Below, one piece after another: positions 34,785-36,519 of a stretch of 41,364 nucleotides of DNA. Position 1 is the stretch's first letter. Every line of letters begins with the position of its first letter. The stretch covers positions 1-41,364 of the IMG/VR virus record IMGVR_UViG_2909257012_000006; one strand, written 5' to 3'. A model generated the notes under the pieces. That model was not told the origin of the DNA, did not search any database, and saw nothing but the letters and a program-made list of their open reading frames with translations. This stretch comes from a virus (lineage: Duplodnaviria; Heunggongvirae; Uroviricota; Caudoviricetes). The position numbers and the translations under genes were made by a program.

Positions 34785-35108
34785 ATGGAAGCATTAGTAG
34801 TAGAGCGAAGCGAGGATGGCTACTGGACGCACCCAGAATACGCCAACCTGTTTGGGGATAGAGAGGTAATTTCAGCTGATGAGTTCAGATCTTTCTGCAA
34901 GCAGCATGGCATTGAATCATCAATTGTTGAAATGGAAAACGACAACAATCAAACGGTAATTGACGCGTATTTTGAAGATGGGAATCCAAACATCAGTGGA
35001 TGGGAGCCAAGCATGCCAGATGGAGAAGGATGGTTTGTCGGTTCGATTCACGATACAGAAGACGGTCCGATCTGCGTTTGGTTCAGGAATGTAGATAAGG
35101 CCGCATAG
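34785..35108 (+). CDS. Hypothetical acidic protein
   Basis: 107-aa ORF with GAGGTGAG RBS; stop lies in terminator loop. Confidence 0.55.
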   Translation: MEALVVERSEDGYWTHPEYANLFGDREVISADEFRSFCKQHGIESSIVEMENDNNQTVIDAYFEDGNPNISGWEPSMPDGEGWFVGSIHDTEDGPICVWFRNVDKAA

Positions 35109-35122
35109 TCGGCCTTTATTTT
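35098..35122 (+). terminator. Rho-independent terminator
   Basis: AGGCCG-catagt-CGGCCT followed by TTATTTTT. Confidence 0.65.
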
Positions 35123-35207
35123 TGGCACTAACAACTGAAGTGGTTTACTGAATTTGGCCACCTGAACAGAGGTGATATGCTCACCTCAGAACAACACAGG
35201 TGCCATA

Positions 35208-35510
35208 ATGAAAAAAAGAAATTTCAGCGCAGAGTTTAAACGCGAATCCGCTCAACTGGTCGTTGACCAGAATTACACCGTGGCAGATGCAGCCAGCGCT
35301 ATGGATGTCGGCCTTTCCACAATGACGCGATGGGTGAAACAATTACGTGATGAGCGGCAGGGAAAAACACCAAAAGCCTCCCCTATTACCCCGGAACAAA
35401 TTGAAATCCGTGAGCTCAGGAAAAAGCTACAACGTATTGAAATGGAAAATGAAATATTAAAAAAGGCTACCGCGCTCTTGATGTCAGACTCCCTGAACAG
35501 TTCTCGATAA
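35208..35510 (+). CDS. IS911 transposase OrfA
   Basis: Identical translation to copy 1 OrfA; slippery site within TTAAAAAAGG near 35455. Confidence 0.9.
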
Positions 35511-35536
35511 TCGGGAAACTCAGGGCGCGTTATCCT

Positions 35537-36355
35537 GTGGCCACTCTCTGCCATGTGTTCGGGGTCCATCGCAGCAGCTACAAATACTGGAAAAACCGTC
35601 CTGAAAAGCCAGACGGCAGACGGGCTGTATTACGCAGCCAGGTACTTGAACTGCATGGCATCAGCCACGGCTCTGCCGGAGCAAGAAGCATCGCCACAAT
35701 GGCAACCCAGAGAGGCTACCAGATGGGGCGCTGGCTTGCTGGCAGACTCATGAAAGAGCTGGGGCTGGTCAGCTGTCAGCAGCCGACTTACCGGTATAAA
35801 CGTGGTGGTCATGAACATGTTGCTATCCCTAACTACCTTGAACGGCAGTTCGCCGTGACCGAGCCAAATCAGGTGTGGTGCGGTGATGTGACCTATATCT
35901 GGACGGGTAAGCGCTGGGCGTACCTCGCCGTTGTTCTCGACCTGTTCGCAAGAAAACCAGTGGGCTGGGCCATGTCGTTCTCGCCGGACAGCAGGCTTAC
36001 CATGAAAGCACTGGAAATGGCATGGGAAACCCGTGGTAAGCCCGTCGGGGTGATGTTCCACAGCGATCAAGGCAGTCATTATACGAGCAGGCAGTTCCGG
36101 CAGTTACTGTGGAGATACCGGATCAGGCAGAGTATGAGTCGGCGTGGAAACTGCTGGGATAACAGCCCAATGGAGCGCTTCTTCAGGAGTCTGAAGAACG
36201 AATGGGTGCCGGCGACGGGCTATGTAAGCTTCAGCGATGCAGCTCACGCAATAACGGACTATATCGTTGGATATTACAGCGCACTAAGACCGCACGAATA
36301 TAATGGTGGGTTACCACCAAACGAATCGGAAAATCGATACTGGAAAAAACTCTAA
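35537..36355 (+). CDS. IS911 transposase OrfB frame
   Basis: Identical translation to copy 1 OrfB. Confidence 0.9.
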
Positions 36356-36405
36356 CTCGGTGGCCAGTTTTTGTTGACCACTTCAAACAGAATAAACACT
36401 GCACT

Positions 36406-36433
36406 GTGTATTCATTCCAACGAGTGAATACAC
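36406..36433. repeat. 9-bp-stem inverted repeat GTGTATTCA-N10-TGAATACAC
   Basis: Seen directly just right of IS911 copy 2; no T-run; function unknown. Confidence 0.35.
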
Positions 36434-36495
36434 GGAGCAATGTCGCTCGTAACTAAACAGGAGCCGACTTGTTCTGATTATTGGAAATCTTCTTT

Positions 36496-36519
36496 GCCCT
36501 CCAGTGTGAGGGCTTTTTT
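36496..36519 (+). terminator. Rho-independent terminator
   Basis: GCCCTC-cagtgt-GAGGGC followed by TTTTTT. Confidence 0.65.

Follow-up and report, generated by a model that had tools for sequence, protein, structure and literature searches.

The locus raises the question of how a prophage came to carry the same insertion sequence twice, in opposite orientations and with the immunity, replication and lysis genes in between, and whether the pair has inverted, or could invert, the DNA between the copies. The present arrangement very probably arose when an intact ISEc52-type element inserted twice, separately and as a simple insertion each time, into intergenic spacers of a P22-like prophage. The feature as a whole is an ordinary IS insertion pair in a prophage, and of a kind that is already known.

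A repeat search was run across the whole window, by which is meant the entire 41,364-bp stretch of DNA that was analysed. It gave only one long repeat, a pair of inverted arms (20698-21955 and 35131-36388) of 1258 nt that are 100% complementary and have 13,175 nt between them. In each arm the element ends are TGAAGTGG...CCACTTCA. The arms exceed the element by 5+3 nt, corresponding to the target-site duplication plus an extra common AC on the IRL (orfA-proximal) side. The first-pass annotation had described a second IS copy, inverted relative to the first, with the same OrfA and OrfB translations, carrying the same AAC duplication in IS orientation, placed between two terminators downstream of N, and enclosing together with the first copy 13.2 kb of immunity, replication and lysis genes. 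All of this held. The two 1250-bp copies align at the nucleotide level as exact reverse complements and are separated by 13,185 bp, the duplications read AAC/AAC at copy 2 and GTT/GTT at copy 1, the two hairpins and the phrog_271 match of the N-type gene place the second copy as proposed, and the gene identities agree with the description of the segment. The span given for the second copy, 35098-36519, contains a real feature, but it also takes in the terminator on each side, and the IS is limited to 35136-36385.

Both copies are intergenic, no ORF is interrupted by either of them, and each is transcribed in the same direction as the surrounding operon (Table 1). Copy 1 is found in the 79-bp spacer between the DUF2560 and small terminase genes, and copy 2 starts 10 bp past the T-run of the first hairpin and ends 110 bp ahead of the second. 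In the match of mEpX1 to the empty-site query, the annotated features beneath include a "terminator". A promoter scan did not place hybrid outward promoters across either IS junction.

Table 1. Features of the two IS copies and of the prophage around them; positions are those of the window.
Feature	Position	Strand	Remarks
Integrase gene	1-1158	+	window layout
Tailspike and virion genes	up to the small terminase gene	-	window layout
Small terminase subunit gene	20219..20644	-	first gene downstream of IS copy 1, late operon; phrog_1482 7.2e-67; PF20901 Sf6_terminase
Target-site duplication of copy 1, GTT	20698..20700	+	AAC in IS orientation
IS copy 1	20701..21950	-	exact reverse complement of copy 2; between DUF2560 and small terminase genes, late operon
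Second duplication copy of copy 1, GTT	21951..21953	+
Segment bracketed by the inverted copies	21951..35135		13,185 bp; DUF2560 through orf107
DUF2560, KilA-N/Rha-like, spanin, endolysin, holin, Q, nin region, DnaB-like helicase, O, cII, cro	beyond IS copy 1	-	gene block
cI, pL/nutL, P22-type boxB, N, orf88, orf107	preceding IS copy 2	+
N-type antiterminator gene	34071..34388	+	P22 gp24-like arginine-rich motif GNAKTRRHERRRKLAIER; phrog_271 6.7e-37
Terminator-like hairpin and T-run after orf107	35097..35125 (hairpin 35097-35116)	+	native phage sequence, also in the empty site of mEp213
Left target-site duplication of copy 2, AAC	35133..35135	+
IS copy 2	35136..36385	+	1250-bp IS3-family element, ISEc52 type (IS911 lineage), apparently intact; sequence reading
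orfA	35208..35510	+	100 aa, helix-turn-helix protein; 98/100 residues as in OrfA of Sf6 IS911
Slippery heptamer A AAA AAG	35459..35465	+	in the orfA frame
orfB	35537..36355	+	DDE catalytic part of the transposase; 260/270 residues as in OrfB of Sf6 IS911
Right target-site duplication of copy 2, AAC	36386..36388	+
Second terminator-like hairpin and T-run	36496..36519 (hairpin 36496-36513)	+	ahead of the cIII-like gene
cIII-like gene	36586..36756	+	first gene downstream of IS copy 2, pL operon; phrog_550 1e-22
RecT and further genes	to the end of the window		last gene xis/TorI-like; its stop codon is the final base of the window

When it comes to its anatomy, the element has the features of the IS3 family. 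Its 1250 bp fall within the family's length of about 1.2-1.5 kb, and it is bounded by imperfect inverted repeats of the TG...CA type, the ends TGAAGTGGTTTACTGAATTTGGCCACC and TGAAGTGGTCAACAAAAACTGGCCACC agreeing at 21 of the first 27 positions. The two-ORF arrangement, in which orfB follows orfA in the -1 frame, is recognisable in the sequence together with an A6G slippery site, and a -1 shift at the heptamer gives a translation of 382 amino acids without a stop, the predicted OrfAB fusion. The NCBIfam model NF033516 (transpos_IS3) matches orfB with 302.8 bits (cutoff 160), and the OrfB translation reads D...HSD-35 residues-E, the rve-type DDE pattern. The target duplications are 3 bp long, where 3 bp and occasionally 4 bp are usual for the family, and the empty sites contain the triplet once. 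Since the full IS3 anatomy is present, both copies look intact.

The name of the element needs some attention. The first-pass annotation called it IS911, which is right as to lineage but not as to type. The window element is 100% identical over 1250 bp to a copy in E. coli AR_451 that is annotated as ISEc52, and the 100%-identical copies in AR_451 and many other E. coli strains, Nissle 1917 included, are labelled "IS3-like element ISEc52 family" by NCBI. Of the E. coli records, 939 have a best match of 99% identity or more, and 1,799 complete E. coli genomes have a place that covers 80% or more of the element. With the element of Shigella phage Sf6 that is annotated as IS911, the nucleotide identity is 94.9% with one indel (1250 versus 1249 bp), and the IRL has TTTACT where the Sf6 element has CACACT. 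About 60 full-length copies from IMG/VR and other loci fall into two clean types, one Sf6-like of 1247-1250 bp, mostly 1249, with the IRL TGAAGTGGCACACT, and one window-like of 1249-1250 bp with the IRL TGAAGTGGTTTACT. In the strict sense the element thus does not belong to IS911, given the 94.9% identity, the indel and the different IRL. The Sf6 element carries the NCBI label "IS911 family". The window element is placed in ISEc52 by its near-identity to the copies of that name. Judged by its sequence it is of the ISEc52 type and a close relative of IS911, both names resting on NCBI labels, with the Sf6 element standing in for IS911 and the AR_451-type copies for ISEc52.

The DNA around the copies is, to judge from its genes, that of a P22-like temperate phage or prophage of the Sf6/HK620/CUS-3 group. 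Lederbergvirus-type phages are the closest records to the window, PF20901 (Sf6_terminase) and PF16510 (P22_portal) match identical or syntenic genes, and a P22-type boxB, GCGCTGACAAAGCGC, is found beside the N-type gene. The ends of the window are the start codon of int and the stop codon of xis. When its end was joined to its start and used as a query, Sf6, HK620 and other relatives matched in two pieces lying 249 bp further apart, and the HK620 record annotates attP inside this int/xis interval. As int and xis flank attP in HK620, the window is in prophage order. An excised genome would measure about 41.6 kb. A circularly permuted virion genome, which would have implied a viable phage, is ruled out by the same 249-bp interval with attP, and viability is consequently not a property that can be read from this sequence. 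No record was found that matches the 727-aa tailspike ORF exactly. At gathering thresholds no Rfam family was found anywhere in the window, and the spacer after IS copy 2 had chance-level matches only.

The history of the two copies can be read from their empty sites. These were rebuilt by deleting each copy together with one copy of the duplication, and 400 bp were compared with relatives. Empty site 2 aligns ungapped and at 100% identity with the corresponding DNA of three related prophages (L111, L110 and L234), all with a single AAC, and the site is also uninterrupted in phage mEp213 (199/200), again with a single AAC. Empty site 1 is likewise 100% identical and ungapped in another related prophage (L098) with a single GTT, and uninterrupted in phage E212 (159/161), which also has one GTT. 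Among the matches listed for the exact small terminase protein, all ten of the ten contexts have the DUF2560-terminase spacing without an IS. The possibility that relatives never have uninterrupted sites, which would have spoken against the reading as insertions, was checked against these prophages and phages and is excluded; both sites are empty in relatives. No observation contradicts the reading as simple insertions.

Because the rejoined flanks equal the uninterrupted sequences of relatives, the left flank of each copy is the proper partner of its right flank. The same continuity shows that the gene order is un-inverted and canonical, and it rules out the present order as the product of an inversion. 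The IS junctions of either copy were absent from 5,426 complete E. coli genomes, in which 500-bp queries reached a best coverage of at most 53%, and exact 41-43-nt junction patterns of both copies had no match in GTDB representative genomes or IMG/VR. With neither junction present in the genomes searched, the doubly occupied prophage is either rare or unsampled.

IS3-type elements move by a copy-out/paste-in route, in which one end of the element attacks the DNA just outside the other end (PMC7780238). Replication then gives a double-stranded circle with the ends abutted and a short spacer of donor-flank DNA between them, and the circle integrates through a staggered cut, the stagger becoming the duplication (PMC7780238). 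The duplications and the intact ends are seen directly in the window, and the copy-out/paste-in route would follow for the element from its family membership. One of the insertions is in the late operon, in the spacer that separates the last gene after the lysis genes from that of the small terminase. The second is in the pL operon, between the terminator after N-orf88-orf107 and the second terminator before cIII. N- and Q-modified transcription should read through the co-directional copies.

It is then a question of whether the two insertions were independent. The identity of the copies had been taken as a sign of recent transposition in the first-pass annotation. The identity is real, but the inference from it is weak, as many chromosomes and plasmids of E. 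coli carry these 1250 bp without any variation. For the same reason the identity does not show that one copy seeded the other. Replicons of E. coli carrying identical ISEc52 are a ready pool of donors from which the copies could have arrived independently. If the source assembly was built from short reads, consensus polishing could also explain part of the perfect identity.

The alternative that survives best is that one copy is the daughter of the other, formed by intramolecular transposition within the prophage. The 3-nt junction spacer of the circle, taken from the donor duplication, would then bias the daughter insertion toward a target with a matching 3-bp stagger, where the 5' flaps could anneal and be ligated without gap filling. 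Besides the 100% identity, this would account for the oriented AAC common to both copies, which even extends to ACAAC at the IRL side. Taking 82 other unique IRL flanks as the basis, the chance of two insertions having the same oriented 3-mer was estimated at about 0.02, and that of sharing the 5-mer ACAAC at about 0.0015. The circle-junction spacer does come from DNA flanking the donor (PMC7780238), and IS transposition in E. coli is biased toward nearby sites (PMC5009759).

Several observations speak against a daughter copy. Both ACAAC 5-mers are native target sequence, and a spacer of 3 nt leaves the extra AC unexplained. Copies with exactly this sequence are frequent in E. coli, making an independent origin equally possible, and the comparison was made post hoc on a coincidence that had already been noticed. 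AAC is furthermore mildly favoured by the element. It is found in 4 of the 82 IRL flanks, and in E. coli AR_451/H105 insertions also occurred at AAC in mcrB (ACAAC before and AAC after the IS) and in gspK (AAAC before and AAC after). The two identical copies of Salmonella phage SEN22 have unlike duplications, AAT and GAG, and the pair in a further prophage, L085, is also unlike, which argues against a general rule by which the duplication is inherited. Taken together, the origin of one copy from the other is unlikely.

The preference of the element is itself slight. Across the 82 IRL flanks no position carries more than 0.19 bits, with a mild excess of AAC and AAT, and a strong target-site consensus is by this measure ruled out as the explanation of the common AAC/ACAAC. 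Under two separate insertions the shared oriented triplet is therefore best described as a mild post-hoc coincidence aided by a weak preference, although it would be unexpected if insertion were both independent and random.

The geometry of the pair leads to the matter of inversion. A 13-kb inversion had been suggested for the copies in the first-pass annotation; the geometry makes it possible, but the window itself is in the un-inverted, canonical order. Homologous recombination of the RecA type between 1250-bp perfect inverted repeats could in principle flip the 13.2 kb. For E. coli, Lee et al. (2016; PMC5009759) give a rate of about 4.5e-5 per genome per generation for homologous recombination of one IS copy with another, and describe it as commonest between closely located copies. 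With this rate and with perfect repeats lying near each other, rare inversion isomers in recA+ lysogens are plausible. A single assembly cannot reveal such isomers, and the four IS-flank junction sequences are identical in both.

A flip would put terS and the virion genes downstream of pL-N-orf88-orf107-IS, and would place cIII, RecT, xis and int behind Q-pR'-holin-lysin-spanin-DUF2560-IS, under the late promoter. The genes would all keep their sense orientation, with their promoters exchanged. Such a swap would probably cripple lytic growth and the late expression of the virion genes. Inversion isomers, if found, would illustrate one way in which a prophage is grounded by the IS copies residing in it, the early-left and late operons exchanging their downstream halves. 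The grounding of prophages by an IS-mediated swap is a mechanism that is well understood in principle. A bolder reading is that the inverted pair serves as a recombination-driven switch between two prophage states, and/or that the oriented duplication reflects a real bias toward duplication inheritance. The evidence for it consists of the geometry and of a coincidence of one in 50, and it must be regarded as very unlikely. If the switch were true, the flipped state would lock or reprogram the prophage.

Two intact, identical and inverted IS copies that bracket a DNA segment, with IRR-type sequences at both outer ends 15.7 kb apart, also recall composite transposons such as Tn10 and Tn5, where the copies and the 13.2 kb between them have moved, or can move, as a unit. 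A separate 3-bp duplication and a separate empty site go with each copy, and the two hence came one by one. The triplets on the outer sides, GTT (20698-20700) and AAC (36386-36388), do not form a direct repeat, and the pair is on this count no composite transposon; the enclosed block is the phage's own syntenic immunity-replication-lysis DNA in canonical order. A composite transposon is for these reasons highly improbable. Least credible of all is that the second copy is a collapsed or misplaced repeat produced in assembly: the perfect identity and the lack of either junction in the public records searched would fit, but both copies have precise TG...CA ends and clean 3-bp duplications, target duplications are not made by an assembly error, and the flanks rejoin to sequences 100% identical to uninterrupted relatives.

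The two separate insertions preferred here are in good company. In one related prophage, L229, orf88 and orf107 are separated by a 100%-identical copy that is turned the other way and flanked by a CTG duplication, and another, L226, has an IS4-family element in orf107. Together with those of SEN22, these insertions show that such insertions are tolerated, and among the places that accept them are the pL spacer distal to N and the spacer between the lysis and terminase genes. A rule that the IS has to be co-directional with the operon is broken by the inverted copy of L229 and by the antisense copies of SEN22. The present analysis is of value mainly to annotation, in which the label ISEc52-type should replace IS911; the backbone is otherwise canonical.

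Compared with known systems, the element differs from the ISEc52 copies of AR_451, H105 and Nissle 1917 in location only, the window having two copies inside a P22-like prophage. It agrees with them at 100% of its 1250 bp, and also in the ends TGAAGTGGTTTACT.../...TTGACCACTTCA and in having 3-bp duplications. With the IS911 of Sf6 it has in common a length of about 1250 bp, orfA and orfB, the A6G frameshift site, an identical IRR, the TG...CA ends and a 3-bp duplication, which is GTT in Sf6. The differences are found at positions 9-11 of the IRL and in the site, since the Sf6 copy disrupts ninG while the window copies are intergenic. The IS-driven rearrangements of E. coli described by Lee et al. 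(2016) had the same substrate, identical IS copies of some length with a few kb between them; there actual events were observed, while the window has the substrate only, in the parental order.

The closest parallel is SEN22, a P22-like Salmonella phage isolated as such, for which four mobile-element insertions have been mentioned (PMC5261728). It carries two copies that are identical to each other and 99.8% identical to the window element, one of them in the late operon on the lysis/terminase side, between Rz and DUF2560. The SEN22 copies differ from those of the window in being direct repeats with unlike duplications, in that one interrupts an antirepressor gene, and in that both are antisense to the late operon. 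The prophage described here is thus an added case, beside Sf6, HK022 and SEN22, of IS elements resident in P22-like or lambdoid genomes.

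The two copies of the ISEc52-type element in the window and a third in mcrB of E. coli AR_451, which is 100% identical to them, all lie in the same target context, ACAAC|IS|AAC in one orientation (ACAAC at 21951-21955 for copy 1 and at 35131-35135 for copy 2). AAC is slightly enriched among the targets of this element, and a strong consensus is absent. When it comes to the flanks, the clean duplications of the window copies differ from what is found for most full-length IS911-type copies in the IMG/VR prophage contigs (loci L116-L219; copies with the CACACT left terminal inverted repeat, mostly 1249 bp), where matching 3-bp flanks are missing. 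These unmatched flanks suggest that IS-mediated rearrangement or recombination between copies is frequent in the hosts of the IS911-type elements.

Features located in the window and in compared loci
Feature	Locus	Position	Strand	Placement
nutL boxB, P22-type, GCGCTGACAAAGCGC	window	33763-33777		pL leader
tRNA-like element (ARAGORN and Rfam)	window	33805-33886	+	pL leader
Spacer 3' of copy 2, roughly 130 nt	window	36389-36519	+	terminates in the second terminator
163-aa ORF	window	25106-25597	-	between Q and the holin gene
ISEc52-type copy, 100% identical	L229 (GCA_050190605.1)	3829-5078		between orf88 and orf107
IS4-family transposase gene	L226	4143-5351		N-distal pL region
Two ISEc52-type copies	L224 (Salmonella phage SEN22, KT630648.2)	16753-18002; 39378-40627		

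The spacer after copy 2, which runs through the terminator-like hairpin ahead of the cIII-like gene, also contains a hairpin of its own, GTGTATTCA...TGAATACAC, at about 36407-36433. The 5' part of the spacer is kept in mEp213 and HK140, and the mEp213 locus has a second occurrence of the 54-nt stretch at 36435-36488. A comparison of the spacer with Rfam gave no credible match.

In the pL leader the tRNA-like element is placed after the nutL boxB and before a 39-aa hydrophobic ORF that precedes the antiterminator gene N. ARAGORN calls it a tRNA-Pro(tgg) of 82 nt, and the Rfam tRNA model scores 38.2 bits (gathering threshold 29) when a 250-nt stretch is searched alone; Rfam did not pick it up in a scan of the whole window. 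The anticodon-loop region is 15 nt as against 7. The same element has an identical placement in four of ten related prophage loci, in all four of which N is 104 aa.

The related prophage L098 carries an HNH_3/AP2-domain gene equal in length and position to the 163-aa ORF. The ORF is therefore likely to represent a homing endonuclease inserted into the late leader.

Position 1 of the window is the ATG of int, while 41364 is the final base of the stop codon of the xis/TorI-like gene. When the end of the window is joined to its beginning, the resulting query aligns with Sf6, HK620 and other relatives as two segments, 249 bp further apart there than in the query. The window is thus a trimmed prophage, cut at gene boundaries without its att sites, because this wider interval between the int and xis segments is where attP falls in the HK620 annotation.

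The N-distal pL region is occupied by other IS elements in two related prophages as well. The ISEc52-type copy in L229 is reversed relative to the pL genes and has a CTG duplication. In L226 the orf107 position is taken by a gene shortened to 87 aa, whose 3' end the transposase gene overlaps. The SEN22 copies are identical to each other, with two mismatches each against the window element, and one of them splits an antirepressor gene. Both lie on one strand as direct repeats, although the mobile_element annotation of KT630648.2 puts them on opposite strands.
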